A DNA stretch of 58,317 nt from a virus (lineage: Duplodnaviria > Caudoviricetes), in the IMG/VR virus record IMGVR_UViG_3300031774_000014, positions 1 through 58,317 of that record, one strand, 5' to 3'. This document shows positions 1 to 51,740 of the stretch, one piece after another. The notes under the pieces were generated by a model that ran no database searches, was not told where the DNA came from, and saw nothing but the letters and a program-made list of their open reading frames with translations. The translations under genes were made by a program, and so were the position numbers. Position 1 is the first letter of the stretch, and the number at the start of each line of letters is the position of its first letter.

Positions 1-73
1 CCATAATAGGCTCTTGCCCTTCTTCAGCCAATAGTACGGGCACATCTTCATATCTGTAAAAAGGTTTTCCCAT
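1..73 (-). CDS. Partial ORF (N-terminus MGKPFYRYEDVPVLLAEEGQEPIM..., runs off window), probable tail/baseplate protein
   Basis: ATG at 73, 2 nt past the stop of the 640-aa tail gene; open to window edge; tail-module context. Confidence 0.55.
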   Translation of the reverse strand, partial: MGKPFYRYEDVPVLLAEEGQEPIM

Positions 74-75
74 AA

Positions 76-1998
76 TTATACTACTGGACGTTTTTCTTTA
101 TAGGTGTGATCTTCTGGCAATAAATCTACAAACCCCCATTTGTGAGCTAAATACCCTTGAGTTCTGAATATTTCACTATCAGGAATAAAGCCACTAACAA
201 CCACATTCTCTGCTATGAATCCATTGATAGTAGATTCCATTTCATTCATAACTGAACCGATGGAAAAAGCTTCTACTTTATTGAGGCCTAAAGAGCCTTC
301 GACTATTGCAGATCTTCCATTTATATCTAAATATGAATTATCTCCATCAATTAAAACTGTTATTATAAATTCCTCTACCCTAATAGTGTCTGCACTAGAC
401 GAAGCACTCTGATAGCTTTCTTTTATTCCTCCGTCAACAATGTCATCTCCTTTGCTTTTTATTGAGCCAGTTTCTTCTAATACTCCATCCGGCCTTCTAG
501 TTTGAGTAGATACCTTTATATTGTTTGTGTCTAACCTCTCTATCAGGAGCCTATCAAATTCTTGATGAAAATCAACGCCCAGTGTATCCACCAAAACAGC
601 CCGCTTATTCATATCCTTAAACTGACCAGCTATAAAGACATAATAAGGCTCCCCCCTGTTTATATTAATATCTCTAGTGGTTAAAATACTTTTGCCGTAA
701 AAATTAATAGCAGGTTTTTTATTAAATATATATTGAGTAAACCTTGGATCAAAACCCCCGCTTGAAGATTCCAATACGGCATCATTAGGTCCCTTACTCC
801 TCCATCCCTTTACAGCATATCCATCTAAATTTAGATAGTTTTTATCTAAAGCATCATTCCATAAGGTTGGTCTCAAAAACGAAGGGCTCCACATTGCTTC
901 GGTAAAATTGCTATTTGTAAAATCTTTAGAGTGGGGTAGTTTTCCCCTTTTATTATAATAAGATTTATACTGAAGATTTACAGTTAATCTTCCATCTACA
1001 GAAGATGAAACAGATTCCCCAATAAGCCTAGCTTGCTCGATAGTATAATGTTGAATTGGATCCCCAAAGCAATCATTAATCTTTATAGCGATATCTTCTA
1101 CAGTGGGTGTGAACATATACTTCCTAAGACTTTGATATTTGTATTCATCTATCTCAAGGGTAAACGAAGTATCTGTAATAATTGGCCAATTAACATCGAC
1201 CTGAGCAGCATATGCTGACCCAACAACATATATTGGCTCTATGCCTACATTAATTGAATGGTTAAATGCCACAACTCTATCTGTCTCTGAGCCTGCACAT
1301 TTTATGCTTATCGATCCTTGGTCGGGAACTCTTATCTCTGGGAAAGGATTGTCGCCCTTAGCATTATACTCTGGTTTATTATAATATGAATCTTCCAGTA
1401 TATAAGCAAATCCATTTTCATCCAGCACGGAAAATTGATCGTTTTCCTTGTCAACGAAATTTGGCGAACCACCTATGTCCCCAAACACTCTTATACTTGT
1501 CGATGTTGACGGAACCTGACCTATGGCACATGATACTGTATGACTAGTAATATAACCACTATGGAACCCAAAATACTCATGGCCATGATGCAAACTTCCA
1601 GTAAATGGAGTGTCACCCAAAAATTGTATAAAAAAATCTTCACTTACTAGCGTTGAATTTATTGAGAAATTTCCTTCTAGTGGCGCATTCAATACCGCCA
1701 TCGATTTGGGATCAGGGCACCTCCTCGGTCTGTCTTCGGGGCAACTAAGAACATCTTCTTGTAATAAATCAAAAAGCCCATGCTCTTGAATCACGAAGCC
1801 GTAGCAACTATCTTCTGGTTTATTTTCAATTTCTATTTTAGGCTCTGGTGGATAATAATCTTCTCCAACTAGCCCCCAGCCTAATACATTAATTGGTTTT
1901 TCTTGTATAGAGTACGAACCCTCAACGCTCTGGATACCAGACATTTGAGTTCCATTAATAAAAAATTTCTGCTCGTGAGCTAAGAATGCTTGCTTCAT
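76..1998 (-). CDS. Tail-tube-fold (distal tail/hub-like) protein with C-terminal LamG/ConA-like domain
   Basis: Directly downstream of TMP; N-half shares motifs with the two tube paralogs (GIQS, GYITSHTVS, ARLIGESVSSS); C-terminus ends GFIAENVV...QGYLAHKWG, as in phage LamG-like domains. Confidence 0.6.
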   Translation of the reverse strand: MKQAFLAHEQKFFINGTQMSGIQSVEGSYSIQEKPINVLGWGLVGEDYYPPEPKIEIENKPEDSCYGFVIQEHGLFDLLQEDVLSCPEDRPRRCPDPKSMAVLNAPLEGNFSINSTLVSEDFFIQFLGDTPFTGSLHHGHEYFGFHSGYITSHTVSCAIGQVPSTSTSIRVFGDIGGSPNFVDKENDQFSVLDENGFAYILEDSYYNKPEYNAKGDNPFPEIRVPDQGSISIKCAGSETDRVVAFNHSINVGIEPIYVVGSAYAAQVDVNWPIITDTSFTLEIDEYKYQSLRKYMFTPTVEDIAIKINDCFGDPIQHYTIEQARLIGESVSSSVDGRLTVNLQYKSYYNKRGKLPHSKDFTNSNFTEAMWSPSFLRPTLWNDALDKNYLNLDGYAVKGWRSKGPNDAVLESSSGGFDPRFTQYIFNKKPAINFYGKSILTTRDININRGEPYYVFIAGQFKDMNKRAVLVDTLGVDFHQEFDRLLIERLDTNNIKVSTQTRRPDGVLEETGSIKSKGDDIVDGGIKESYQSASSSADTIRVEEFIITVLIDGDNSYLDINGRSAIVEGSLGLNKVEAFSIGSVMNEMESTINGFIAENVVVSGFIPDSEIFRTQGYLAHKWGFVDLLPEDHTYKEKRPVV

Positions 1999-4900
1999 CC
2001 GCTAAGCTCTCCACCTATTCGCTTCTCCTCTCGAATAACTTCGAGTACCTTTGTCTTTATCTTCATGGCAAGTTGTTGCTCTTGCTCGTATGTTCCTTGT
2101 GCCCCTTCGGTGGAAACCTTTTCATTTCCGGATTTGTCAATTGTTACATTGACATTTATATTGTTTGTTACTTCTGTATTTTGATTTGTCGCAGCAGTTT
2201 CTGTTTGGTTTGCTTGTGTTCCTTCTAATAGAGAGCTTATCCTATTCTCTACTACAGGAGCAGGCTTTGATCCTGATGTTGTCTGTGGGGTAGAAATGGA
2301 AGAACTAGGAGAGCTTGCTGTACCAACTATGCCGCCCTTATAGTATCCTTTTTCTGCCTTGCGAAATCCGTCTGGATTTTGCATTGCAAACTTCATCATG
2401 TTTGGGTTGTCTCGAAGTAACTTATCTGTAGAACTTCTTCTTATGATAAAATCTCCTTCGCTTAGTCCAACTGGACCCACATTATCTACACCTCCCGGTC
2501 CATCAATGATGGGGATTGATCCAGTGCGATTCATTTTATTTAAATTGTCATAACCTATGCGCTTCGCAATTGGTGCTGGTATAAAAGATTCTCCTGCAGT
2601 CAACATGGCTGGAATTTCTCCACCCGAAAATACTTCTAATGGCTTGCCCCTGTCTATTCCCGTGATGGCTTCAGTGGACCTTGGCCGCATTTTCACCTTT
2701 TCCATTTGAGTAGAATTTATCTTATTTTGCAAATCTTGAGCGGTAGCGCCCCTATAATTAGGATTATTCGCTTCTGTCTTTTTAATTGACTCAAACCAGC
2801 TTCCATGCTTCTTCCCACCCCTAGCCCTAAACTGGAAATTGCTCACTTCATTGCCTTTTGCATTGGATGCAAAATCACTACCATACAATTTGCCATTATA
2901 CTCAAGAGGTTTTCCGGATTCTATACTGTCTGCTATATCCTTATAGTTTACATTATCCAGTCCAGCCTTTCTTGCGGCCTTAAATGCCTCAGAGTGCTTA
3001 CCTATCCCACTATGGCCAAGAGCTACATTTTTACCCTTTTCTATAAGTGCATTAAGTGGCTTTGCAGCCAAGGAAGTTAATTGACTAATCGCAAAACTTG
3101 CCACGGTTCCTACAATCGATCCAATTTTCGACATTCTTTTACTGACATCTTTATTTTTCTGCGCCGCACGATATGAAGCTACATCTAATAAATGCCCCCG
3201 ATACTCTTCCATAACTGGATCTTTAGCTAGAAGCTTCCCACTTGATCTAGGGTCTCCTCTTGAAATTGAAAGTGTAGAATCCAAGTTCAAATTCTTAAAC
3301 TTGTTCATATCAAATTCAGGTGGCTTGTCTTTGTGGGCATCCTTGTCTTGCATTTTCTTGGCAACATATCTCGCTGCTTCTTGCATCGCAAATCCCTGGG
3401 CTAATCCGGTCGCTCCGGCCTTCACTCTTTGAGCAACACCACCCTCCTCAAAGTGTTGCAATATGCCGCCATCTTTTAATGCCTTTGCTGCCTTTTTAGG
3501 TACAACAAATTCTCCTGCAGTGAGCATGGCTGGTACTTTATCAACCCCGGGCTCGCCCTCAACAAATCCACCTTTTGCAAATTTTTGTATTTTGCCGCCG
3601 AAAAAATCCGTTCTTGGTTTGGCAGCTGGAATTGTTATTTCATTAAATGGTTTATATGAACTAAAATTTTGTTGATTAGCATTTTTTAAGTTTTGGGTCA
3701 CAATATCAATTTGTTGACCTGCAGAAACAATTGATGAAGTAAGGCTTGAGATTTCCTGTTGAGTTAATTCACTAGCACGACCCCTCTTTATAAGCTCCAT
3801 GTTTATTTTTTTTAAGTTAGACTTTAACTGGTTTATTTCTGTAGCCAATTGAACATTTGCTGTTTTTGTAGCATCAACTCCATCCATTGCAACCTTCAAA
3901 GACTTACCCTCATCAGTGTGCGGATTAGTGGCTGCATATTTTTTCTCTAAAGTGCCAAATTCTGGATCATAATTTGCTTTTTGTAAAAACTTCTTATTTC
4001 GTTGAAATTCATTTTCTTTCTCCACTATTAAACGTTCAACCTCTCTTTTTTGCCTACCTGGCTCTAACTCTGGCATGTTTTCTACCTTTAGGTCACTGCT
4101 AGCAAGTTCGTTAGGGTCATAATCTTTATCCCTTAAACCAAACCTCGACCTATCTGGATTCGCTGCTATATCTTCTGCTCTCTGTCTCTCTTGGGCATTT
4201 TTTGCCTGTCTAGCTAACTCAGCAAGGTGTTCTTTTTTAGCCTGCTCTTCCATTTGCCTATGAAGTATATCTTCGCGCGCTTGGGCATCTATTTCAGCGC
4301 CTCTTTTTGTGTTTGGATCTGAGAGAGAAATATCATTAGGGTTTACTCCTGTTTTTGTCACACCAATATCAGCCCTACTTGCAACCTGCCCCTCTACTGC
4401 TCTTTTTTGTCCTTCTACGGACATTCTTAGTGCATCAAGCGAACTAACCAACTTCTGATTTTCACTAATCAGATTATTGTTCGATGAAGCCATTTTCTCG
4501 GCTTCAGAAAGTGCATTCTCTCCAGTAAATGCAAAAGTTAAATTTTTAATAATCTGATCGATATTGTGCTCCATCATGCGGTCAAGCAAAACATCTGCCA
4601 ATCCTAAACCAAAGTCAGACCATGCTTCCTTTGCACTTTTTGCACCGCTTCCAATATCTTTAAAGAGTTGCTTCATGCCGCTCCTAGTTTGATCTAGTCC
4701 TATGTCAACTAAATCAGCTCCAAGATTTTTGGCGGCCACATCCATCTCCGCAATTTTCGTACGCATTCTATCAAATGCACGCGATCCAATTTGTAATTGT
4801 TTGTTTGTTTCTTCTAGCGACTGAGAGAAGGCCAGGGCATCTTCTGGGCTGCCAGTTATCGTTGCCCTCATGCCGGCTTCTCTTGTTCCTCTAATTCCAG

Positions 4901-7900
4901 TGGCCCTTTCTGTCGCTATATCTGTACCAACACTTAACCTTAACTCTTGCTCGCTTACCGCAGCTTTTCTTATCGCATTCTCTAACCCGATTAATTTATT
5001 AGAAGATTCTTGCAATTCATTTGCTTGGCGCAGTAATTCTCCTTGTTTACCCATTGCACTTAATATTAATGCTTTCTCGCTATTAACTAAGGCGGATGAT
5101 TGAGCTGAAGTTATTTCTTCTTGAATCTGTAAGTCTACTTGTTTTCTTAACTCTTCAGATCCTGCTAATAATTTTAATTTAGTAAGATTATTTCTTGCGG
5201 TTGTTTCGAGGGTAGTAGTTTCTTCGCTTATTTGCGACTGAACCAAAGACTCTCTAGTTTCGTTATAACTTAAATATTCATTCCTGAATGCTGCATCTTT
5301 GGCAGCTGCACTAGCCCCAAGAACTTCACTTTGTATCTTAGCTATTTGAATAATTTTAAATTCATCGGTATCCCGAAGTATATTTTCTTGAACTTGTAAT
5401 TGCTTAAGGGACAATACAGCAGCTTCTGCATCTGTGCGGTTTTTAGCTGTTTGTTGTTCATAGGCTTTGTCATCAAGGGCTCCGCTCTCCATGATCTTTT
5501 TAAGGCTATCTTTTCTAAAATGATTAATGACAGCCAGAGTGTCAACTTCGCCCTGTAAGTTTTCAAGCATGGATTCTGCGGGGTTCTTTTGCTCGGCAAA
5601 AATCATAGCTAATTCCCTAGCACCTTCGACTGTTTTTTGTTTTATTAAATTTAAAGCCTTTTCGTTTTCTAATCCAGCTCTAGCTACTTTAGCATTTGTT
5701 TCTGCTGTTTGCTGCGATCTTCTAAGACTATCACCAGTTTTCTTGAGAGCCTCTATGTTTTCTGGCAGTATAGTAGTAAGCTTCATATGATGTTTTGCCA
5801 AAAGCACAGACATTGATAAAATTGAATCTTGATTATCTCCATATTTTTCGACAAGCTTATTTATAATTTCTTGATTATCTGTATGATCTTTAATTTCTTT
5901 CCCTAATTCCTTGAAGAATGTATTTAGGTCTTGAATTTGACCTTTATCTAATCCGCCTAATGAATCGCTAACTTCGGCAATCATCTGAGGGTTTAATCCT
6001 TTTTTAATTGCATTTTTAAGTTCAGCGACACCAGTTTGAGCATCTTTAGCATCGCTATTAAATTGAGAGCTTAAAGCGGTAATGTTTACATATTTTTTAC
6101 GAATAGCCTCAAGGCTATTTAATGCTTCATTATTTGCTTTTAATTTATCCGACTCAAGTTTTTCAGTTATTGTTGCGCCATCTAAAGCTGATTTGTTCTG
6201 TATAGCAGTAGAGCGACTCATCATTTCATATTCACTCTGTAAATCAATCAATCTACTATTAATCTTTCTTTTAGACTGAGTAATAATATTATCTAATTTG
6301 TTTTGATGAATTATTTCTTCTCTTTGCTTTTTATAGTTAGCTACTATTTTAGTATATTCAGTTAGTAGTCCAGACTTAGCTTGTTGGGCTTTCTTGGTCT
6401 CCTTGTGCTCTCTTTCTGATACTTTGATTTGTTCATTTAATGCATTAATGAAAAACTTTTTCTTTTCTGCAGTTTCTAAATCTAAAGACTCTAGTCCGGA
6501 AATGCCTTGAATATTTCCTGCTTCTAGGTTTTTCTTCATCGCTTCTTTTTTCTTAGGGTCAAGGCCTACTGTTATTTCTGCAATTCTATTTGCTAAAGAG
6601 TTCAGTTCATCTTTTAATTCTTTACTAGGAGAGCTTCCTTCAAACATTCCGAATTCGCCCTCAGTTTTCTCGCCGAAATCTTTAATGGCTGTAGCGAAAG
6701 CCATTTGAACCGCTTCTTGCTTTGCTATTTTCTCGAGTACACGGATCAATGTTTCTGTACCTTTAACTTCTCCAGACTTGGCCTTATTGATTTCATTTAT
6801 TAAATCCTTGTTTTTGAGATTGGCTATGTCTACTTGTGCAAGTTTAGACTGCAAACTAGTCTGCTGCTTGATTTCTTTTATTCTCAGGCTGATTAGTTCT
6901 TTTTCTTGCTTTAATGTTCTACCCGACCCAATAATTTCTAGTTTAGACATTTTGTCTCTGGTCGAGGAAAGGCCATTTGCTACATCTAGTGCTGACTGTG
7001 TTTTTTCTGCAGACTCAGAGAGCTTTTCTAATTTATCTGCGGCTTTATCCGCATTATCCTTAAAAAGATCAAATATATCTATACCAGCAAATTTCAAGAC
7101 TTCGTTTAGCACACTAAAACCAGTAATTAATTGGCCAACCGCAGGAGCAAGCCTCAATAAGCCTTTGCCGAATTTTGCAATACCACCTATCGTCTTAGCG
7201 ATTTTATCTAAACCTAATCCCTTGCCTTTTCCTGCTCCCCCAGCACCCCCAGTAACTTTACCAAGCAAGCCTCCAAGACCAACTTCTTTGCCTTTCTCGA
7301 CCCCTCCCATCTCTGCGAGTTGGCTTGCAAATTCTTTAGTAGCGATCATGGTGGACACAACATTGCTAACCCCTAATCCAAGTTCAGCCATTGTTTTGGT
7401 CGTCTCTCCGCCTGTCTCTGCAAATTCCTGAAGGAACCCACTAGCCATACTAATGCTTGATTGAAGGTAAAACAGCCTCTGCAGTCCCTCCATATTTGAA
7501 GTGGTATGCTTATCCACCCCTTCTTCATTATCCTTTAAAGAATTAGTGGTCGATTCTACTTGATTTTCAAAATCTTTAAACTTTTGACCCGCCGGTCCTC
7601 CAGCCGCACCACCAACTACAAAGTTAGGCATAAATCCTCCGGCCGCACCATGGCTCTTAGGATCGATTCCCATGCTTTTTGCCCGCCTGATCCCCTGGCC
7701 AACCCCAGCAGGCTCATCTCTTGTATTAGTAACAGCAAGACCCATTGGGTTTCCGGGCCCTTTTAATTGATTACTTTGTTCAATTTTTATATTGCTCGCT
7801 GGAATTCCGGCGGCCTTTTCTCGCTCCACCGCTTCTGCTAATGGGTCTGCAAAATTAGGAACAAAACCGCCAGATAATATTCTATAATCTTCTGGATATT

Positions 7901-10900
7901 TTTTTAAATCCTGCAAGGTTTTTCTGTCATAAAATTTAGACAAAAATTGAAGCATAGTTTGCCCGGGCCTGAATTGAGTTTCACCCCCTGCAAATTCCTT
8001 TAAGTATTCTTGATGCATCAAGTTTTTTGACTTGATTGTTTTCTTCTTAAAAGGTACAGCATTATCAAAAGGAACTATATCTGCAAAGTTGGGAACGAGG
8101 CCGCTTGATGCATCACTAAAGGAACCTAAACTTCTACCGCTATTATACCTCTCGACTTTGTCTTTAAGGTTTTTAATAAAAATACCATTTAAATCAATCG
8201 TGCCTTTTCTGTCTTGAATCGCAGCTTTTGATGCATAATGTTTAGCACCCTCCCTTCCCATAGATGGGCCGCCAAGACCCTTTAGGTCTTTATTTGCCCT
8301 TGCTTTAAACCCTTGAGTTTGTTTATTTATTTTTGCAATCTCTTGTGGTTTGGTGTCCGTATGGTTTTGCAAATAATTAGCAAAATCCGTTAAAGTAAAA
8401 TCATCTCCCCGAAGGCCCCAGCCATTTGGACCTTTAGACCATTTGAGAAATTTTTGCCAGTAATGAAAGTTTGGCACAAAGCCTTGATTGTTAAATTTAG
8501 ATTGTATATCCGAAAACTTTCCGGTCTTCCTTTTTATTAAATCAGCATCCTGCTTAGATAGATATTTATTTATGTCTTGAAAGGTTAATTTATTTAAATC
8601 AATATCATCTACATGATAATCATAGCTTATTTTTTTATTTAATTCTTTTTTGCTTTTTATAGATTGATCAATCGCCTGTTTTGTTAATGGTTTTGATTTA
8701 GATCTTATATCACCAAGAGTAGTAGTTAAGTTCTTCTTTGGTCTAGCATCTGCCCCTTCGGCTATAATATCTACAAATCGGCTACCAGGTAGTTCGACTT
8801 TCCCTGATTGACTCAAAATCTGACCAAGTTTCCCTTGATCAGCTAACTCTCTAAGAACTTTAGTTCTCATTAATTTGGCGCCATGCCCTGTTCCAGATTC
8901 TGTATCTCCGTAAATAATTGAGTCTTGCAGTCCTATTTTTTTTCTGAGCTCACGAGGCACCCTAATTCTCCTACCTCGAGCTTCGGAAAAATCTAAAGCG
9001 TCTGTGCCTTTCTTAAATGGCTGACCAGCTAACATAGAGAAAACTTCCTCAAATAAGTCTCCTTTTATTCTGACATCACTTAAGTGACCGGTTCGGTCTT
9101 TAACTTCATTATATATTTTTTTAGCATTATTAAATTTTTTATCACCTAGCGCTTTCCTCATTCCTGATTGCCGGGTATTATATTTTTTTCCCTTTACGGT
9201 TTGAGTCCTTGTTTGCTCTTTGAGGTAATTTAAAAAAGATGGGCCTGACATACCAAAAACATCTTTGTATATATTTTTTGGCGTTTTAATTTGGCCTGCT
9301 TCATACTTTTTGATTAAATCATTGTAAAGAGAATTCCAGTCTTTTTTGAAATTCGGAACAAACCCTTCACTCATGCCCCACATATCCGCATCAGATTCAG
9401 AAAATTCTCCACCCTTGCCTGAACCCTTGATCCCCATCTTACCTGCGAGTTTTTGGGCTCCGCTCAAATTTTTTCCCTTTAACCCCTTTCCACCACTTAT
9501 TTTATTTGCAGACATCCAACCGCTTAATTCGCGATCAGAAGCCATTCTTAAACTTTTTGATATTATGTTTGCCGCACTTAATTTTCCGCTCTTTACCTCA
9601 TGAGCCCCACCAGGACCAATAATATCTACAGGATAATTCTGTACTCCTTTTTTTGTTTTTGGATCGTATGTTAATTGATTCCCGCCAACTTCTTTATTTA
9701 ATAAATTAAGAGATTTTCTTTCTGCAAATTGATCCCGACTTAACTTACCCTTACCCTTGCCCCCTGGAATCGGAGGTCTTACATTAAACGTTCTTTCAAT
9801 TGAATCAATACCCGCGCCGGATAATGCACTGAATGCTTCAAATAATGTCTCCTTACCTGATATCTTTTGCTTTCCACCATCTGAAGACATAATGATATCT
9901 TTTAGGCTTGCGGACATTTTTACCGGTTGCCTACTAGCAAATAATTTCTCTATTTCTTTATAATTGACCCCAGTTGCTCGTGCAATATCCATAGATCCGC
10001 CAAACAATGTAAGTTTGGACTTATCCATAACCAAATTTTTACCCATAGCTGTTGCGAAATTAGGCACGAATCCGTCGCTTGCGTATGGATCAAACCCATG
10101 CTTTCCTTGAAATGCTTTTTGGTATACCGATCCAGCCCTACTATTCTCAGGAGGCATAATTGCAGGTTGCTTCATTCCTGGAAATTGTTTTACTGTTTCA
10201 GCTTTATTATAGACTACATCCCCCACTCCCTGTACCCGCATTGAGTCAATAGGTCCAGCACCATATCCACCCATAGCGGCCCCTTTTCTTTCTTTCCTCC
10301 TTGATGCTTCTGGAACCAGCCCTCCTGATGCCCCAAGGTCCGGGGATACTCCTTTTGCGACCAAGGGTCCAGCTAAAGATTGAGCGATCCTTCTTTGCTG
10401 TTCCATGGCATCTGTTTGAGCCTCTATAATACCCAGCATGAATTTTTCTTGAGCTAATCGATCTCCCTCTAAATTGTTTAAAGATTGCTGAATATTATGG
10501 TTCCTAGATAATGCATCCACAATAGAATCTTCCATCTGTTTTATTCTATCTTTTTGGCTGACAACACCAAGAACATCCTTCATTGAATTAGAAGCGAACT
10601 TGGCGATATTCATGAATAGCTTGATGAATATAGCTCCAAATGCGATTGCCGCAGGGCCCGATATGACATTTCCAATGCCCCTAACTAATCCTTTACCAAA
10701 AGTGCTACCTTCTTCTTCTCCTCCTCCTAGGGCTCCTCGTATTTCTTCGATTCTTTCGTTTACAAACTCAAGGGCATCTGCCATTTGTGGGCCGATAGCT
10801 AGTTGCCCTATAGTCGCTGCTAATTCTTGAAGGTTCGTGCCGGCTTGACTCGCTAATGCAGAAACCGTCTTGTTTAATAATTCATTTTTCCTGGCAGCTT

Positions 10901-11963
10901 CTCCGGCTGCATCTGCAGATATTTTAGTGGCTTGAGCATGTAAGCTATTCTCTTTTGATAGGTCTTTTAATGCTGCCCTAAACACATTGGCTTGAAATAT
11001 TCCTGCTGAAAACTGAACCACATTAGATTGCTGGGATTGGGTTAAACTATCGAAAGTCTTAGACATATTAAGCAAAACTTTATCTGCAGGTAAAATTGCT
11101 CCACTCAAGTCTCTTACAACTATTCCCATTTGCTCTAATTGATTTAAAGCCTCCGGCCTTTGTATTCTCGTGAAAATTGTTTTTAAACTATTACCAATAA
11201 CCGCGCCACCTCTAGCTGTAGTTTGTTGAAGCGCCGCAACAATACCAACAAGGCTATCAAACTCGACACCAGCATCAATTGCAACGGCTCCCGCACGCTG
11301 CAAAGCATTAATTAAATCCTCAGAACTAACTGCGAAGTTAACATCTACCGCTGATAATTTATCAATAATATCAGTCGTAGTCAATCCGGCATCCCCAAAA
11401 GCATTAACCGCTGCCGTTAATCCAGCTACAGCATCCGCAGCCTTCAGGCTCGTTAACCTGGTAAGTATTAAAGCATCATTAGTTCGCTTTATGACTTCCT
11501 CTGTAGATAAACCTTGCCTGGAAAACTCTAGCGCAGCTTCCGCCGCAATATTAAACCCTTGGGCAGTGTTCCTTGCCGCATCAAACAGTCCCTCCCCAAA
11601 GGATCTTATCTGAGAGTTTGATAAGCTTAGTACCGCATTAATATCAGCAAGGGTTTTCTCGAATGCTACAGCCTCTGTAACCAAACTTTTGAAAGCATTG
11701 CTTATCCCGTCAAGGATTGCAACCGATGCACCAAAAGCTATAACACGAGCATTTGAAGCCTCTAAAGATTTCGTAAACTCGTTGGCAGACGCGTTGATTC
11801 TACCAAGTGGCTGCGTAAAGCTTTTTTCGTTAACACTGAACCCTACATTCTTACCACTAATTTTATTAACAACCTTGTTGATTTCATTAGTGGCACGATC
11901 CAGGCTACGCTTAACACCCTGAGTGTTAACGCTTAGATCAATATCTGCTCTTATTCCTGCCAT
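1995..11963 (-). CDS. Tape measure protein, 3322 aa
   Basis: TP901-type N-terminal core (EFSRQG, IGNSLKTIFTRI), long helical/coiled-coil body, C-terminal GG..G.PG.D.VPAMLTAGE motifs; position in tail module. Confidence 0.93.
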   Translation of the reverse strand: MAGIRADIDLSVNTQGVKRSLDRATNEINKVVNKISGKNVGFSVNEKSFTQPLGRINASANEFTKSLEASNARVIAFGASVAILDGISNAFKSLVTEAVAFEKTLADINAVLSLSNSQIRSFGEGLFDAARNTAQGFNIAAEAALEFSRQGLSTEEVIKRTNDALILTRLTSLKAADAVAGLTAAVNAFGDAGLTTTDIIDKLSAVDVNFAVSSEDLINALQRAGAVAIDAGVEFDSLVGIVAALQQTTARGGAVIGNSLKTIFTRIQRPEALNQLEQMGIVVRDLSGAILPADKVLLNMSKTFDSLTQSQQSNVVQFSAGIFQANVFRAALKDLSKENSLHAQATKISADAAGEAARKNELLNKTVSALASQAGTNLQELAATIGQLAIGPQMADALEFVNERIEEIRGALGGGEEEGSTFGKGLVRGIGNVISGPAAIAFGAIFIKLFMNIAKFASNSMKDVLGVVSQKDRIKQMEDSIVDALSRNHNIQQSLNNLEGDRLAQEKFMLGIIEAQTDAMEQQRRIAQSLAGPLVAKGVSPDLGASGGLVPEASRRKERKGAAMGGYGAGPIDSMRVQGVGDVVYNKAETVKQFPGMKQPAIMPPENSRAGSVYQKAFQGKHGFDPYASDGFVPNFATAMGKNLVMDKSKLTLFGGSMDIARATGVNYKEIEKLFASRQPVKMSASLKDIIMSSDGGKQKISGKETLFEAFSALSGAGIDSIERTFNVRPPIPGGKGKGKLSRDQFAERKSLNLLNKEVGGNQLTYDPKTKKGVQNYPVDIIGPGGAHEVKSGKLSAANIISKSLRMASDRELSGWMSANKISGGKGLKGKNLSGAQKLAGKMGIKGSGKGGEFSESDADMWGMSEGFVPNFKKDWNSLYNDLIKKYEAGQIKTPKNIYKDVFGMSGPSFLNYLKEQTRTQTVKGKKYNTRQSGMRKALGDKKFNNAKKIYNEVKDRTGHLSDVRIKGDLFEEVFSMLAGQPFKKGTDALDFSEARGRRIRVPRELRKKIGLQDSIIYGDTESGTGHGAKLMRTKVLRELADQGKLGQILSQSGKVELPGSRFVDIIAEGADARPKKNLTTTLGDIRSKSKPLTKQAIDQSIKSKKELNKKISYDYHVDDIDLNKLTFQDINKYLSKQDADLIKRKTGKFSDIQSKFNNQGFVPNFHYWQKFLKWSKGPNGWGLRGDDFTLTDFANYLQNHTDTKPQEIAKINKQTQGFKARANKDLKGLGGPSMGREGAKHYASKAAIQDRKGTIDLNGIFIKNLKDKVERYNSGRSLGSFSDASSGLVPNFADIVPFDNAVPFKKKTIKSKNLMHQEYLKEFAGGETQFRPGQTMLQFLSKFYDRKTLQDLKKYPEDYRILSGGFVPNFADPLAEAVEREKAAGIPASNIKIEQSNQLKGPGNPMGLAVTNTRDEPAGVGQGIRRAKSMGIDPKSHGAAGGFMPNFVVGGAAGGPAGQKFKDFENQVESTTNSLKDNEEGVDKHTTSNMEGLQRLFYLQSSISMASGFLQEFAETGGETTKTMAELGLGVSNVVSTMIATKEFASQLAEMGGVEKGKEVGLGGLLGKVTGGAGGAGKGKGLGLDKIAKTIGGIAKFGKGLLRLAPAVGQLITGFSVLNEVLKFAGIDIFDLFKDNADKAADKLEKLSESAEKTQSALDVANGLSSTRDKMSKLEIIGSGRTLKQEKELISLRIKEIKQQTSLQSKLAQVDIANLKNKDLINEINKAKSGEVKGTETLIRVLEKIAKQEAVQMAFATAIKDFGEKTEGEFGMFEGSSPSKELKDELNSLANRIAEITVGLDPKKKEAMKKNLEAGNIQGISGLESLDLETAEKKKFFINALNEQIKVSEREHKETKKAQQAKSGLLTEYTKIVANYKKQREEIIHQNKLDNIITQSKRKINSRLIDLQSEYEMMSRSTAIQNKSALDGATITEKLESDKLKANNEALNSLEAIRKKYVNITALSSQFNSDAKDAQTGVAELKNAIKKGLNPQMIAEVSDSLGGLDKGQIQDLNTFFKELGKEIKDHTDNQEIINKLVEKYGDNQDSILSMSVLLAKHHMKLTTILPENIEALKKTGDSLRRSQQTAETNAKVARAGLENEKALNLIKQKTVEGARELAMIFAEQKNPAESMLENLQGEVDTLAVINHFRKDSLKKIMESGALDDKAYEQQTAKNRTDAEAAVLSLKQLQVQENILRDTDEFKIIQIAKIQSEVLGASAAAKDAAFRNEYLSYNETRESLVQSQISEETTTLETTARNNLTKLKLLAGSEELRKQVDLQIQEEITSAQSSALVNSEKALILSAMGKQGELLRQANELQESSNKLIGLENAIRKAAVSEQELRLSVGTDIATERATGIRGTREAGMRATITGSPEDALAFSQSLEETNKQLQIGSRAFDRMRTKIAEMDVAAKNLGADLVDIGLDQTRSGMKQLFKDIGSGAKSAKEAWSDFGLGLADVLLDRMMEHNIDQIIKNLTFAFTGENALSEAEKMASSNNNLISENQKLVSSLDALRMSVEGQKRAVEGQVASRADIGVTKTGVNPNDISLSDPNTKRGAEIDAQAREDILHRQMEEQAKKEHLAELARQAKNAQERQRAEDIAANPDRSRFGLRDKDYDPNELASSDLKVENMPELEPGRQKREVERLIVEKENEFQRNKKFLQKANYDPEFGTLEKKYAATNPHTDEGKSLKVAMDGVDATKTANVQLATEINQLKSNLKKINMELIKRGRASELTQQEISSLTSSIVSAGQQIDIVTQNLKNANQQNFSSYKPFNEITIPAAKPRTDFFGGKIQKFAKGGFVEGEPGVDKVPAMLTAGEFVVPKKAAKALKDGGILQHFEEGGVAQRVKAGATGLAQGFAMQEAARYVAKKMQDKDAHKDKPPEFDMNKFKNLNLDSTLSISRGDPRSSGKLLAKDPVMEEYRGHLLDVASYRAAQKNKDVSKRMSKIGSIVGTVASFAISQLTSLAAKPLNALIEKGKNVALGHSGIGKHSEAFKAARKAGLDNVNYKDIADSIESGKPLEYNGKLYGSDFASNAKGNEVSNFQFRARGGKKHGSWFESIKKTEANNPNYRGATAQDLQNKINSTQMEKVKMRPRSTEAITGIDRGKPLEVFSGGEIPAMLTAGESFIPAPIAKRIGYDNLNKMNRTGSIPIIDGPGGVDNVGPVGLSEGDFIIRRSSTDKLLRDNPNMMKFAMQNPDGFRKAEKGYYKGGIVGTASSPSSSISTPQTTSGSKPAPVVENRISSLLEGTQANQTETAATNQNTEVTNNINVNVTIDKSGNEKVSTEGAQGTYEQEQQLAMKIKTKVLEVIREEKRIGGELSG

Positions 11964-47310: not shown

Positions 47311-48183
47311 CTATAAAACCTCTACCAACTCGCCTTCTTCAACCTCCATGTCAAGAGTATTGTCGACATGATTATTGATATCGAAACTAACTTCGCCATC
47401 GAGAACAGAATGCAAAGCATCTGACCTATTAGGAAGCTGAACAAGATTGCCCTTGTACACTTCTGTGAAAGCATTGTAAAGAGAATTAACATTGCGATCC
47501 CAAAATTCGGGATGATCGGAAGACTCCCATTGATCGACAACATCAATGATTTTAGATTTCGGCAATGCCCCTGCTTTGCAGGCGCGAATTACTATATCAT
47601 TAGCTTGTGCATTGCTAATCTCTAAATTCTTGTAAGCCTCTATTCTTGAGTCTTGACCATGCCAAAAGCCAAAAAGCTTACCGAGTGCGCGATTGATTGT
47701 AAAATCAAGATCGTTAAGAATGTTTCGAGTATGACGACGCGCAAGCTTGATCGTATTGGTAAAAATTAAATTGTCACAAACAAATGGCGCGTCACCTGCA
47801 CACAATCCCGCAGGAAAAGTTTTGTCGTGAGAATTGCGGATGCCAACTACACAACCACGATCAGTTGAAACCCTGTTAGGGTGATCAACCGAAAATAATC
47901 CGAAGTAATGCTTGCGATCCCTAGCAAGAGAGTGAACCTCATCTTGAATCGTAAAACCATTGGAATCAAGAAACCCTTTGGTGCGCTCAACTACATCATG
48001 GTGAGCGATAGGTTGGTAAGAAACGGCTCGCTCGCCATTGGCATTTTCTTTTTTGCGATACTCTACGGGTGGAGTAGGAACTCCAACAACTTGGTCAAAT
48101 TCTACAAGAGTACGATTACCTCCGCAGATGTTAAGGTTAACAGATTTGCGAGGAGCGGTAGTGATGTTTTGTTCGTTATTCAT
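47311..48183 (-). CDS. DUF932-family protein
   Basis: YQPI.H, IRNSHD, G...FVC.N, RRHT motifs. Confidence 0.75.
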   Translation of the reverse strand: MNNEQNITTAPRKSVNLNICGGNRTLVEFDQVVGVPTPPVEYRKKENANGERAVSYQPIAHHDVVERTKGFLDSNGFTIQDEVHSLARDRKHYFGLFSVDHPNRVSTDRGCVVGIRNSHDKTFPAGLCAGDAPFVCDNLIFTNTIKLARRHTRNILNDLDFTINRALGKLFGFWHGQDSRIEAYKNLEISNAQANDIVIRACKAGALPKSKIIDVVDQWESSDHPEFWDRNVNSLYNAFTEVYKGNLVQLPNRSDALHSVLDGEVSFDINNHVDNTLDMEVEEGELVEVL

Positions 48184-48227
48184 AATGTTGATAATATAGT
48201 AATGATTGTTTTTGTCAATGGTTAATT

Positions 48228-48461
48228 TTAATTGTTGTAAGTTTTTTTTAGTTGGTCGTAGGCATAAGCTTTTCCTGCGATACTTTCAAAAACTTCTTTT
48301 AATAAAGAGTAGCCTAATAAATCCCTAGCATCTAAATCTGCTTTGTCAATGATATTGGTCTCTAATAATTCAGTCGCTGTATCCATTGCTTGTATGGAAT
48401 CTAAATTACTAAAGTCGATCTCTGTGTCGTCTTCGTTGTGTGAGTTAGGTATATAATACAT
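48228..48461 (-). CDS. Hypothetical protein (77 aa)
   Basis: Acidic ORF overlapping upstream 41-aa ORF. Confidence 0.7.
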   Translation of the reverse strand: MYYIPNSHNEDDTEIDFSNLDSIQAMDTATELLETNIIDKADLDARDLLGYSLLKEVFESIAGKAYAYDQLKKTYNN

Positions 48462-48570
48462 AATTTTTCTTGTGTTTAAGTTTGCGGTCTAAAACTTTGT
48501 TATTCATCTTGAAGGCTCTTGCCTTAGTGAAAAGGATTGGTTTTCTTACTTTTACTTCTCTCGCTTTCAT
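48445..48570 (-). CDS. 41-aa highly basic peptide (not in ORF track)
   Basis: TTGCTA-17-TAGTAT-6-ATG; MKAREVKVRKPILFTKARAFKMNNKVLDRKLKHKKNYVLYT; repeat copy 7 at -66. Confidence 0.75.
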   Translation of the reverse strand: MKAREVKVRKPILFTKARAFKMNNKVLDRKLKHKKNYVLYT

Positions 48571-48635
48571 ATATACATACTAGGCTAGTTTTTTAATTAT
48601 AGCAAGAAAAAAGTTCGACTAAATGAAAATAGTCG

Positions 48636-48702
48636 TAAGTCTTTGGCTATCAGGCGCTTATGGCGCCAGGGGCGCCGTAACCCCTTGACTATCAAAACTT
48701 TA
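48636..48702. repeat. 67-bp double-dyad element, copy 7
   Basis: TAAGTCTTTGGCTATCAGGCGCTTA-TGGCGCCAGGGGCGCCG-TAACCCCTTGACTATCAAAACTTTA. Confidence 0.92.
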
Positions 48703-48930
48703 TAAAACTTAATTTTAAAAAACAAAAATTTTAATAATAATTATTTTATATATTATTATGTATTGTATTTATTACATTGTATGTGTTGTTATTATGTATA
48801 TTTGGGAGTGATGTATTTAATGGTGAGGTATTTGTAAGCAATAGAGTTATTGTTTACAGAGTATAGTTGCGATAACGAGAGTGAGAATAATTTTAATGCA
48901 GATAATCATTAATAATTTTAATTGTAATTA

Positions 48931-48966
48931 AAAAGAAAACCCCGCCCCCAAAAATAGGGACGAGGC
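48931..48966 (-). terminator. Intrinsic terminator
   Basis: GCCTCGTCCCT...GGGGGCGGGGT (with G-U pairs) + TTTTCTTTT. Confidence 0.65.
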
Positions 48967-48979
48967 ATACATCATACAA

Positions 48980-49273
48980 CTAAAATGCTCTTAAAGATTC
49001 AATGGCTTGCTTAACTGCAAAAGGTACAAATGGAGAGGTGCTCATGCCATCTAATGTTCTTGCTGGAATTGATACATCACGAACATAGTCGCCCGCTTCC
49101 TCGACATAGTCCATTCGAGCTTTAGTGTCGCAAGCTTGAGCGATATATCTGTCGCATCCGCATCGGATAAGAAGTGGAAGGTTAGGCATCTCAACTTCTA
49201 ATAAGTCGAGATCTTCTTTAGTAACGAAACCAAATTGTTGTTTGGAGAGAACTTTTAATAATGTTTTAATCAT
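48980..49273 (-). CDS. Hypothetical protein (97 aa)
   Basis: TTGACG-17-TATTGT-6-ATG. Confidence 0.8.
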   Translation of the reverse strand: MIKTLLKVLSKQQFGFVTKEDLDLLEVEMPNLPLLIRCGCDRYIAQACDTKARMDYVEEAGDYVRDVSIPARTLDGMSTSPFVPFAVKQAIESLRAF

Positions 49274-49310
49274 AAGAACACAATAACGGATTGAACGTGT
49301 CGCGTCAAAT

Positions 49311-49356
49311 AAAAAACCCCTGAATAGGAATTAAATTACTGACCTACTCAGGGGTT
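49311..49356 (-). terminator. Intrinsic terminator of putative ncRNA
   Basis: AACCCCTGAGTAGG-loop-CCTATTCAGGGGTT + T-run. Confidence 0.75.
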
Positions 49357-49373
49357 GGGTGATGGGGAAAGGG

Positions 49374-49661
49374 TGTGGGGAGGGACTACTAAATACCCTC
49401 GACTTTCGGTGTGAACTTTAGTTCAGTGGTTATCCTAATCGAACTACACTTGGATTGGTCATCCTACTTCAGACATTTGTCCATCAGTACCCCGCCACAG
49501 AGAAGCATATACCTTATCTCGAACACAAAGAGATTACTCGGTCACCCACAGGAAGGATTATAAGCCCTTCCAAAGTTTATTTGAACTAAAATTAATTCAA
49601 ATTTAAAATGTAAAAGATCAATTATTTTATTTACTTGAGTTTGTTTCTCAATTTTGATTAT
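49374..49661 (-). ncRNA. Putative structured non-coding RNA (family not recognised)
   Basis: Own promoter (TTGACA 49691-96, TATTAT 49668-73), boxA-like TGATCTTTTACATTT, several hairpins, closing UGUGGG/CCCACA helix, terminator, no ORF. Confidence 0.6.
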
Positions 49662-49704
49662 GTATATATAATACTATATATTTGGTTATTTGTCAAGTAT
49701 TGTT

Positions 49705-49896
49705 TTAAGCTTTTGCTAACTTTAATGCTCGCGCGGCTTTGATTTCCTTGAGCCTACGATCTGCTTCGCGTTGTTGTGCGAAGATACTATCGGTAACTAC
49801 CGATCCGAAGTTGGCGAACTTTGCTCCACGGATATAACTTCCGCTTTTAACATTGTTCATAATTGAAGTGGCTTGTGCGCATTTTGCTATGTTCAT
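49705..49896 (-). CDS. Basic hypothetical protein (63 aa)
   Basis: TTGACA-17-TATAGT promoter with short leader. Confidence 0.75.
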   Translation of the reverse strand: MNIAKCAQATSIMNNVKSGSYIRGAKFANFGSVVTDSIFAQQREADRRLKEIKAARALKLAKA

Positions 49897-49960
49897 AATA
49901 ATATTGTGTGAGTGATTGATGGTTAATATAAAACTACTATAATAGAGGATATGAGATGTG

Positions 49961-50398
49961 TCAAGTGGGAAAATACTCTAATTTATCTAAGCATGGTTCA
50001 TGCTTGTCGATATGATCTAGGTATCTTTGAATTTCGTGTTCAACGCGAAACCAACTCTCATTGGATGCAAAGAAAGATAATTCGCTCACAAAATTGCACC
50101 AATTATCGCAAACTGAGTAAACAAGGCGATCTTCTTCTTTATCTTTGGGATGATTATATATAAATGGTTTGGCGCACCAATTTCCACTATCTTCAAATGA
50201 TAGACCTAGTCTCGCATAAGGAGAAAGAGTTGATGCCCAATCGATTTCTGTTGCAAACAAAGCATCAGTAAACCATTCTTTCTTATCTTGTGAATCGAAT
50301 TCATTCCAATCAGGAGTTTCTTCGTCTTGCTCAATCCAAGCAACTTCTTTGTGGCAAATCTCTTTAATTTTATTTACAATTAATTTTATGTCTCTCAT
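49961..50398 (-). CDS. Hypothetical protein (145 aa)
   Basis: TTGACA-17-TATAGT promoter, AAAGGA SD. Confidence 0.8.
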   Translation of the reverse strand: MRDIKLIVNKIKEICHKEVAWIEQDEETPDWNEFDSQDKKEWFTDALFATEIDWASTLSPYARLGLSFEDSGNWCAKPFIYNHPKDKEEDRLVYSVCDNWCNFVSELSFFASNESWFRVEHEIQRYLDHIDKHEPCLDKLEYFPT

Positions 50399-50455
50399 AT
50401 TTTCCTTTCGTTGGTGATTAATGAAACCCTACTATATAGGGGTGCAGAAGTAATG

Positions 50456-50713
50456 TCAACCCCCTTTTTGTAATAATCTGCATTCTTTTAGGATTTGTTT
50501 CAATTTAAAAAATGCTTGGTCGGGCGGAAACAACTTAGCGTTAGCTTCAGAAGTGGTCGAGCGATATAAATCTTCCACGAACTCCTCTGCTTTAACCAAA
50601 TTAATTAAAGTAATTTCTTTTGTAGTTAATTTATCATACATCTCTTCTTTTGAATCGAATAGACCTATGTTTTTAATTTCTTGTTGTTCTGCTATGTTTT
50701 TAATTTCTGTCAT
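50456..50713 (-). CDS. Hypothetical protein (85 aa)
   Basis: TTGACA-16-TATAGT-7-ATG. Confidence 0.75.
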   Translation of the reverse strand: MTEIKNIAEQQEIKNIGLFDSKEEMYDKLTTKEITLINLVKAEEFVEDLYRSTTSEANAKLFPPDQAFFKLKQILKECRLLQKGG

Positions 50714-50801
50714 ACCTACTACTATATGGAGTTATATTTTAATGTCAATACCTTTTATTAAATAAAGTTAAATCAAATCAAATTTAATTTTAATTAACTT
50801 A

Positions 50802-50826
50802 TAAGTTATTGATTATTAAGGCTTTA
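50802..50826. repeat. Single degenerate 25-bp dyad box of the 67-bp family
   Basis: TAAGTTATTGATTATTAAGGCTTTA matches TAA-N4-TTGA-N3-TYAR-N4-TTA. Confidence 0.5.
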
Positions 50827-51094
50827 TGATGCCCTAGAGTAAACTAAAATGTTGTGTCCCCTGTGTCCCGATTATTTATTTGCAAAAATTTCTTTTACAA
50901 TTATTTCGGGGCGTGTACTATTTGGCATGAGACATATTATAATTCGTTATTTAGTGAAAGAACTAAAAAAAGGCATGATCCATTATGAAGTTAATGGAAC
51001 TCCAGAAAAGAGGATGTTTAGAATAAATTCGTTAGCGGTATATCAATACACAAAGCTAACTAAAATTAAAAAATGTAAATTATTTATTAAAATT

Positions 51095-51391
51095 TTATTC
51101 AAAATTATTTTGAACAAGTAGTTTATCTTGTATCATATCATTAATATAATACTCATTATCGAATAAACCTTTAATGCTTTTGCCGTTATTTGTGAGTTTA
51201 TTTAACTCGTTTTTAACTTGAGTTATTTCGACTTCTGCGAGTTCTAATACCTGTTTCTTGGTTATTTTCTCGCCTGTCTCTTGGTTTATTAATCCCTTGC
51301 GACCATCGACTTCCTTGTGGAGTCGTTGAGCTTCCGCTTGTAAGGTCAACAGATCATCAAGACATTTATTTATTTGTTTTGCAGTATTCAT
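51095..51391 (-). CDS. Hypothetical protein (98 aa)
   Basis: TTGACA-17-TACATT-6-ATG. Confidence 0.8.
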   Translation of the reverse strand: MNTAKQINKCLDDLLTLQAEAQRLHKEVDGRKGLINQETGEKITKKQVLELAEVEITQVKNELNKLTNNGKSIKGLFDNEYYINDMIQDKLLVQNNFE

Positions 51392-51494
51392 AATTCAAAT
51401 GTACACAACAGATAGTTATTTGTCAAGCCCCGAATAATATATTATATTTAAAAATTATTAAACAAAATTTTAATTTAAATTATTTGGGTGCTAT

Positions 51495-51740
51495 TCATTT
51501 GTATTTCTTTATATTAAATGGGGGGCATAAGCATACTATGTTATTTGGGATGTCTAGTATTGGTTCTATAATCAATGTGGCATAAACCTCCTCATCGTTG
51601 TCTGCTTCATACCAATCAACACTATTAAGGATGTGTGTCGGCTCGATAGGGTTATCGCCCTTAGCCCCGAAGATATGCACGAACTCTGCCCCTAGGCAAG
51701 CCTCTACATGGGCTACACTCGCTTTTCCTGCATCATCCAT
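51495..51740 (-). CDS. Hypothetical protein (81 aa)
   Basis: Higher-GC ORF in AT-rich surroundings; weak promoter upstream. Confidence 0.55.
   Translation of the reverse strand: MDDAGKASVAHVEACLGAEFVHIFGAKGDNPIEPTHILNSVDWYEADNDEEVYATLIIEPILDIPNNIVCLCPPFNIKKYK

Follow-up and report, generated by a model that had tools for sequence, protein, structure and literature searches.

A self-contained transcription unit for a manA-class structured RNA in a tailed-phage genome, probably releasing a free RNA rather than forming a 5′ untranslated region switch

The virus record IMGVR_UViG_3300031774_000014 (Duplodnaviria; Caudoviricetes) carries, between positions 49696 and 49311 on its minus strand, a full-length manA RNA (Rfam RF01745) enclosed by its own promoter and its own terminator. 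We favor, with moderate confidence, the reading that a manA-class structured RNA has a self-contained gene here and would work as a free molecule rather than as a switch in the 5′ untranslated region (UTR) of a neighboring gene. The window, that is, the whole stretch of DNA analyzed, is a 58,317-base complete IMG/VR virus record with a CheckV completeness estimate of ∼45%; its genes include a large terminase, rIIA, rIIB, and a tape-measure protein of 3322 amino acids (aa), and a tRNA gene scan of all 58,317 bases found none. Direct reading of the minus strand from 49696 to 49311 gives a promoter, a short hairpin, TGATCTTTTACATTT, a GC-richer core, and a strong terminator, in that order. An original prediction made from the letters alone had proposed here a unit free of open reading frames (ORFs) that yields an abundant, stable RNA of unknown class. 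The features of the locus are as follows.

49668..49696, minus strand: sigma-70-type promoter, −35 TTGACA at 49696-49691, 17-nt spacer, −10 TATTAT at 49673-49668
49635..49651, minus strand: 5′-proximal hairpin (TTGAG, loop AAACAAA, CTCAA), from sequence reading and folding, ∼10 nt from the predicted start
49620-49606, minus strand: stretch TGATCTTTTACATTT, likened to boxA in the original prediction, from sequence reading
49609..49619, minus strand: boxA-like motif GATCTTTTACA, within TGATCTTTTACATTT, two mismatches to GYTCTTTAANA
49579..49603 (approximate), minus strand: small A/U-rich hairpin between the boxA-like motif and manA, from folding; a variable spacer
49370..49571, minus strand: manA RNA core, RF01745, model positions 1-192 of 192, from the Rfam covariance model
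49355..49369, minus strand: C/U-rich 3′ tail or linker, TTTCCCCATCACCCA; relatives have similar linkers
49311..49354, minus strand: intrinsic terminator, 12-bp stem, 14-nt loop, T6, from sequence reading and folding
49280..49308, minus strand: separate promoter of the next gene, TTGACG-17-TATTGT, 9 of 12 consensus positions in a promoter scan
48980..49273, minus strand: gene for a 97-aa protein downstream of manA, a neighbor whose regulation by manA is not established

Scanning the whole window against Rfam 15 returned a single match, manA RNA, covering the full length of the model at 49370-49571 (minus strand) and scoring 65.1 bits (gathering score 55.2; E = 2.4e-14); an RF01745 search of 14 control genomes returned no match. 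In the cmscan alignment the window copy matches the conserved unpaired and junction nucleotides GUGAC.GA.UAA, UAAGGU, GUGG, ACCA, GGGUAU..AGUA.UCCC, and CC.C.CACC. The description of the RNA as novel and of unknown class fails because of this strong Rfam match, the very outcome that the original prediction had named as removing its novelty: the core is a full-length member of a class described in 2010. According to the accessible text of that description, manA is a riboswitch candidate found almost exclusively in marine metagenomes, T4-like cyanophages, and two gamma-proteobacteria (PMC2864571); it usually lies upstream of genes and was rated “cis-reg Y, switch y” (Weinberg et al. 2010, Genome Biol 11:R31, PMC2864571), and the same account recurs in the sections available of later papers (PMC9964418, PMC12197685). 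The window copy shares with the described motif a multi-helix junction closed by GGG.G/C.CCC, the GUGAC.GA.UAA and GGUAU..AGUA.UCCC segments, and an occurrence in marine phages. Its subclass departs from that motif in its 5′ hairpin and in its placement: instead of occupying a 5′ UTR, it forms a unit of its own that runs from promoter to terminator, with a boxA-like leader. Rfam types the family as “Cis-reg” on the strength of its 5′-UTR position, which does not hold for the window copy, where a terminator and a separate promoter precede the next ORF; as this annotation concerns context and lies outside the covariance model, membership in RF01745 is intact.

The structure proposed originally agrees with the family model in large part. 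Four of its five helices are helices of the Rfam manA model: GGAAGG 49571-49566 with CCTTCC 49556-49551, the ATCTC/GAGAT and GAGGG/CCCTC stems, and the closing helix TGTGGG 49550-49545 with CCCACA 49379-49374. The fifth, TAGTTC/GAACTA, is absent from the model, and both the model and an alignment of 31 window-type sequences (defined below) pair GAAC with GUUC as a local hairpin instead. An alternative TGGGTGA/TCACCCA pairing, also suggested at the outset, is present in the window and used by the minimum free energy fold of the whole transcript, but it is not conserved: it beats shuffled linkers (p ≤ 0.05) in 1 of 34 relatives and does no better than them in the other 33. A second family, DUF2693 RNA, was considered for the leader (window 49514-49619, minus strand) and rejected, at 22.3 bits versus a cut-off of 81.3. 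This weak likeness falls on the conserved single-stranded 5′ end of the DUF2693 family, GAUCUUUGACAU; DUF2693 RNA may also begin with a boxA-like sequence.

Relatives were fetched with three short patterns, all inside the core, which drew 223 viral-contig loci; two of the three, each of 15 bases, also drew many chance loci. Rfam scores above the cut-off confirmed manA in 26 of the first 35 loci. From 21 distinct confirmed copies an nhmmer profile was made, which detected manA in 126 of 224 records, counting the window. Of these 126 records, 107 are full length and 93 are distinct when flanks are counted. The copies form two classes: a window-type class of 44 copies, marked by GUGGGUGAC and scoring 61 to 93 Rfam bits, and a cyanophage-type class of 49 copies scoring 118 to 135 bits. 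A blastn comparison of the window locus, and of a relative's manA unit, with 50,697 cultured-phage records gave no match, and no large terminase from a cultured phage exceeds ∼28% identity to the one encoded here; because of this distance from isolates, the host cannot be inferred. Searching prokaryote genomes (one per species) with the 3′ pattern gave 62 matches, two of them real manA, a pattern-limited result that says little on frequency in bacteria. Both stand on contigs of metagenome-assembled genomes that may be binned phage DNA, one labeled Candidatus Neomarinimicrobiota (L277/L292; window-type, 84 bits) and one labeled Spirulinaceae (L258/L291).

Covariation bears out the claim of a structured noncoding RNA together with the covariance model. 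Among 31 nonredundant window-type sequences, 13 of the 34 RNAalifold consensus pairs show compensatory changes on both sides, and the manA closing helix is invariant. RNAalifold on the MAFFT alignment does not recover the outer stems P4 and P8; a cross-class MAFFT alignment misaligns the variable middle and was left out of the pair counts. The whole 351-nt unit folds with z = −2.83, and none of 100 shuffles folds as well.

The unit is bounded at both ends by strong signals. Its promoter matches 11 of 12 consensus positions in a promoter scan, which over 2 kb found 17 promoter-like sites versus 8.2 ± 2.6 in shuffles; transcription is predicted to start near 49661. The terminator consists of CCCCTGAGTAGG (49354-49343), a 14-nt loop, CCTATTCAGGGG (49328-49317), and TTTTTT (49316-49311), with a folding energy of −22.5 kcal/mol; a pattern scan missed it because its loop exceeds 8 nt. 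The sense strand of 49311-49696 contains no ORF of at least 21 aa, and none is conserved across the unit. The promoter, the terminator, the lack of an ORF, and the placement of TGATCTTTTACATTT at 49606-49620 thus stand as originally described. All neighboring genes in 47311-51740 lie on the minus strand. Just upstream, at 49936-49964 and 50431-50459 on the minus strand, two further near-consensus TTGACA-17-TATAGT promoters each serve a small gene; manA is one of a series of short units with strong promoters in this region.

This architecture is conserved in the window-type class. Among 42 copies with enough 3′ sequence to be assessed, an intrinsic terminator starts within 60 nt of manA in 35, and in 3 more at 89 to 109 nt; in 4 of the 42 an ATG ORF lies within 60 nt and a terminator is absent, and none contacts a tRNA gene. 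On the upstream side, 42 window-type copies have 150 nt or more of sequence, and in 35 of these a promoter of the form TTGACN-16..18-TANNNT lies within 200 nt. The 35 terminators comprise 28 different hairpins by starting sequence. Folded with the whole manA and linker, the terminator stem has a mean pair probability of at least 0.9 in 33 of 35 (0.94 in the window), and forbidding it costs 10 to 29 kcal/mol in 34 of 35; no structure competing with the terminator is predicted in 33 of the 35 full-context folds. No conserved pairing of the 3′ linker with the core was found among these relatives, whose similar linkers include ATTTCTTAATCAT and ATTTTCTCTCATCCC. In 28 of the 35, the T-run of the terminator passes directly into TTGAC., followed by 16 to 17 nt, a −10 element, 6 to 7 nt, and an ATG. 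The window follows this plan: the promoter of the next gene begins in the T/A tail of the terminator, with 6 nt between its −10 and the ATG at 49273. The next gene thus has its own promoter and a leaderless-looking start, the 6 to 7 nt between −10 and ATG leaving no space for a ribosome-binding site; a read-through mRNA, likewise without a ribosome-binding site, would be poorly translated.

The leader is conserved as well. The 5′ hairpin is kept in most relatives with the compensatory variants TTGAG/CTCAA, TTAAG/CTTAA, and TCGAG/CTCGA. For boxA we used the gamma-proteobacterial consensus GYTCTTTAANA, as given in the available text of PMC5725501, and took the best match in the 150 nt upstream of manA; this consensus may not be that of the host. 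Exact matches occur in 4 of 42 window-type leaders versus 0.09% of 26,656 background windows, and matches with zero or one mismatch in 29 of 42 versus 1.6%; the leader motif that the original prediction likened to boxA is conserved. A further 11 of 42 leaders, versus 14.5% of background windows, have exactly two mismatches. None of 48 cyanophage-type leaders comes within one mismatch. The window motif is the only minus-strand match to a loosened pattern in the 58-kb window. Unlike consensus boxA, window-type motifs usually have A rather than C or T at position 2, and the window also has T at position 8. Besides rRNA operons, boxA elements also precede some CRISPR arrays. In the rrn leader the order is boxB-boxA-boxC, bound by NusB/NusE, according to the portion available of PMC10250234; like such antitermination leaders, the unit places a hairpin and then a boxA-like sequence at the beginning of a transcript that is not translated. 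By this analogy we infer that the leader recruits the NusB/NusE complex of its host, and a boxA-like leader would suit an untranslated transcript that needs to escape Rho. Between the boxA-like motif and manA, relatives have either nothing or an insert of about 50 to 110 nt. Inserts of 50 to 160 nt with hairpins of their own, which may be an extra RNA domain, occur in 13 loci (L019, L132, L003, L020, L014, L139, L158, L131, L199, L204, L189, L182, and L036); the window has only its 25-nt A/U hairpin.

Cyanophage-type copies occupy other surroundings, assessable in 47 cases. Fourteen of the 47 lie within 15 nt of tRNA genes (actual gaps of 0 to 12 nt), 10 of the 14 with tRNA genes on both sides in orders that include Thr-manA-Ala-Asn, Thr-Ala-manA-Asn, and Thr-manA-Asn. 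Another 3 of 47 have a terminator and 5 of 47 belong to no group; the rest, which precede ORFs, are taken up below. On two contigs a permuted tmRNA shares the array with manA: L021 4480-5177 (minus strand) and L030 7853-8551 (plus strand) both read tRNA-Thr, permuted cyanobacterial-type tmRNA, tRNA-Ala, manA, and tRNA-Asn, with gaps of 0 to 2 nt around manA. Among cultured phages, manA abuts tRNA-Gly in S-SSM7, stands 32 nt before talC in P-TIM40 and 18 nt before a hypothetical gene in S-SSM4, and follows the major head gene (gp23) in P-RSM1. In S-SSM7 (L287; NC_015287.1, Synechococcus phage S-SSM7, 151441-151572) the hypothetical protein SSSM7_180 is annotated wholly over manA and overlaps the following tRNA-Gly, probably a misannotation; at least one cultured phage genome thus annotates a protein over manA, a point of practical use. 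An open-access-leaning literature search, which left the gene-context supplements of the 2010 paper outside, found nothing on manA in tRNA arrays or as a stand-alone unit; as far as these searches reach, the stand-alone context is new, while the class itself was already cataloged. The tRNA cluster of phage T4 holds stable RNAs of unknown function, “species 1 and 2”. By description, the 14 tRNA-adjacent manA copies resemble them as structured phage RNAs that share a transcript with tRNAs and are presumably freed by the enzymes of tRNA processing; the window copy differs from species 1 and 2 in standing outside any tRNA array.

These elements suggest a simple course of events. Host sigma-70 RNA polymerase would start at the near-consensus promoter, near 49661, and the transcript would open with the short 5′ hairpin and the boxA-like sequence, which could recruit NusB/NusE; the complex would shield the untranslated transcript from Rho and might aid its folding. 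The 202-nt manA core would come next, followed by the C/U-rich tail, and transcription would stop at the strong, apparently unregulated intrinsic terminator, leaving an RNA of ∼350 nt. The next gene would be transcribed from its own promoter, which begins in the terminator tail. Because of this combination (own promoter, unregulated terminator, separate promoter for the next gene) we take the RNA to act, presumably in trans, as a free molecule rather than a 5′-UTR switch, and it is probably abundant.

What such an RNA might do is suggested by a preprint of July 2026: in vitro, according to its accessible text, manA RNAs assemble into octamers, decamers, and a T=1 cage of 60 subunits (Ren et al., bioRxiv 10.64898/2026.07.01.735769) by way of kissing loops and a GNRA-receptor contact (bioRxiv 10.64898/2026.07.01.735769). 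manA is thereby the first natural RNA for which an icosahedral-like cage has been described in vitro, a behavior so far set in no biological context. As available, the preprint still terms manA putatively cis-regulatory, and the words “tRNA”, “terminator”, and “in vivo” are absent from its main text (bioRxiv 10.64898/2026.07.01.735769). The window copy belongs to the same Rfam family as the preprint RNAs and keeps UGG (in a GUGGCG loop) and CCA (in a GACCA loop) for a possible loop-loop contact. In the candidate kissing loops UGG and CCA are invariant; a fourth pair is compensated once (L007) and mismatched in seven sequences, including the window. A strong dedicated promoter fits the high local concentration needed for self-assembly. 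Self-assembly into closed homo-oligomers in vitro is the one activity so far known for manA RNAs, and by analogy it would be the most likely molecular activity here, its role in infection aside, and oligomerization may also take place in vivo.

The locus recurs in environmental DNA, and contigs from RNA libraries give a weak hint that it is expressed. Near-identical stretches occur in public marine, seawater, and viral metagenomes, at least half of the sampled words being present in 14 of the 22 runs listed (two of them possibly source DNA). In all four RNA libraries examined (X15 through X18), contigs of 90 to 99% likeness cover parts of the core: 49418-49574 in X15, 49398-49545 in X17, 49382-49543 in X18, and pieces in several places in X16. 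Immediately 5′ of the core, at 49574-49576, several of these contigs depart from the window sequence. Positions 49294-49365 are uncovered in all four libraries, and the contigs are uninformative on transcript ends.

A number of observations weigh against a free-standing RNA. Foremost, 25 of the 47 assessable cyanophage-type copies lie 18 to 51 nt upstream of an ATG ORF with no terminator, the classical look of a 5′ UTR; it was this context, in the text available of the 2010 paper, that led the discoverers to call manA cis-regulatory (PMC2864571). In the window-type class, the layout of aptamer, terminator, and gene is that of a classic transcriptional riboswitch, and a protein homologous to the window's 97-aa protein (17 to 91% identical) follows manA in 28 of 34 loci. 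The sampled contigs come from related phages, so that counts of copies are not independent events and overstate independence. The folding energy of the 202-nt core taken alone is unremarkable (z = −0.22), being equaled or bettered by 78 of 200 shuffles; because of this, the case for structure rests on the covariance model and covariation rather than on folding energy. The window's own motif, GATCTTTTACA, has two mismatches to boxA, and 16.1% of the background does as well or better; alone it is not significant, yet it stands at the homologous place. The RNA-library data are contigs with possible DNA carry-over, which speak to presence and not to strand, ends, or level. The oligomers were formed in vitro only, at 10 mM Mg and ∼3 mg/mL RNA, by variants other than the window subclass, according to the accessible preprint text (bioRxiv 10.64898/2026.07.01.735769).

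Several of these points would follow from a transcription-terminating riboswitch in which the core is an aptamer and a ligand yet to be identified decides between stopping at 49354-49311 and reading through into the small-protein gene. The 2010 rating (PMC2864571, in its available text), the shared order of structured domain, intrinsic terminator, and gene, the downstream protein family common to 28 of 34 window-type loci, and the ORF-proximal cyanophage-type copies (25 of 47; talC in P-TIM40, for example) all speak for it; we nonetheless judge it unlikely. In terminating riboswitches the expression platform and the aptamer exclude each other. Here a 14-nt linker separates core and terminator, domain and terminator do not overlap, no competing pairing is predicted with stem probabilities of at least 0.9 in 33 of 35, and the alternative pairing of the original prediction does no better than chance (1 of 34). 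Sequence conservation is lacking in the terminator arms (28 variants among 35), although it is present in the aptamer with which they would have to pair. The downstream gene has a promoter of its own and an ATG 6 to 7 nt after the −10, with no ribosome-binding site, and synteny is not specific to it: beyond the downstream gene, 32 of 43 loci keep an upstream 63-aa gene, and 24 of 43 a 290-aa gene farther downstream. A 5′-UTR switch is not possible for the copies enclosed by tRNA genes, and no manA ligand has been reported since 2010 in the literature searched. A riboswitch, then, accounts for the ORF-proximal copies and could account for the aptamer-terminator-gene order, but it leaves unexplained the copies between tRNAs, the noncompeting terminators, and the separately promoted next gene that lacks a ribosome-binding site. 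A free-standing RNA accounts for each of the three contexts: presumed release from tRNA arrays, a unit of its own, and co-transcription ahead of an ORF.

A cis-acting or protein-partnered RNA with no small-molecule ligand, either as a ribonucleoprotein with the neighboring small protein or as an insulator or stabilizer between early units, is harder still to credit. It could draw on the pairing of manA with the small protein, kept across 17 to 91% protein identity, on the confidently predicted fold of that protein, which resembles no known structure, and on the attachment of the RNA to a coding region in the 25 ORF-proximal cyanophage-type copies. The downstream family has products of 84 to 101 aa, and the AF2 model of the 97-aa protein is confident (pLDDT 91.7) with no PDB fold match; searches against Pfam, PHROG, PDB sequences, and Atlas likewise gave no match, so neither an RNA-binding family nor a matching fold backs such a partnership. 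Cyanophage-type copies have other neighbors (talC, tRNAs, gp23), and general synteny explains the pairing equally well.

Finally, it is very improbable that the region encodes a small protein, most plausibly antisense (plus strand), with the RNA structure incidental: an antisense stop-free frame does span at least 90% of the core in 13 of 31 window-type cores, and the plus strand of the window has ORFs of 50 and 44 aa, but core lengths (200 to 211 nt) include all three remainders modulo 3, a complete ORF of at least 40 aa is missing from 17 of 31 cores, the alignment of the 31 sequences contains single-base indels, stem substitutions are compensatory, the neighboring genes in 47311-51740 are all on the other strand, and solved manA RNA structures are reported in the available preprint text (Ren et al., bioRxiv 10.64898/2026.07.01.735769). 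The openness of the antisense frames probably reflects composition, the sense strand being purine-rich.

With manA an orphan riboswitch candidate since 2010, the stand-alone subclass and the tRNA-wedged copies shift its likely biology from ligand sensing toward a free RNA. The unit described here is a natural cassette with predicted ends, for which we predict a discrete RNA, constitutive termination, and dependence on Nus factors, and, for the tRNA arrays, release by RNase P. A bolder proposal, which we put forward as doubtful, is that manA RNAs are not riboswitches at all, but free RNAs that marine phages make in bulk, either cut from tRNA arrays by tRNA-processing enzymes or produced by dedicated units whose boxA leader enlists the host machinery for rRNA antitermination and folding, and that self-assemble in the infected cell into the closed, pentamer-based shells known from cryo-EM. 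If true, this would be a natural RNA-only compartment or scaffold used during infection.

Elsewhere in the window an intergenic element of 60 to 146 nt occurs seven times, always on the minus strand (48705-48560, 47243-47109, 45003-44912, 43898-43791, 43095-42995, 40822-40715, and 39995-39936). It consists of two GATAGTCAACGACTTA-like copies flanking a palindromic, GC-rich hairpin made of GGCGCC, 3 nt, and GGCGCC, or variants of these, followed in six of the seven by an A/T stretch, TTTTTTCTTG, and often CTATAAT before the gene start; a spacer carrying the element has three to five matches each in the relatives L172, L165, L182, and L023. It is possibly a phage-specific promoter or regulator cassette. 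A reading of the elements as N4-type virion-polymerase promoters was rejected because the giant 3322-aa protein is a tape measure. This protein (window 1995-11963, minus strand) matches PHROG tape-measure families and Pfam PhageMin_Tail, and its length implies an exceptionally long tail.

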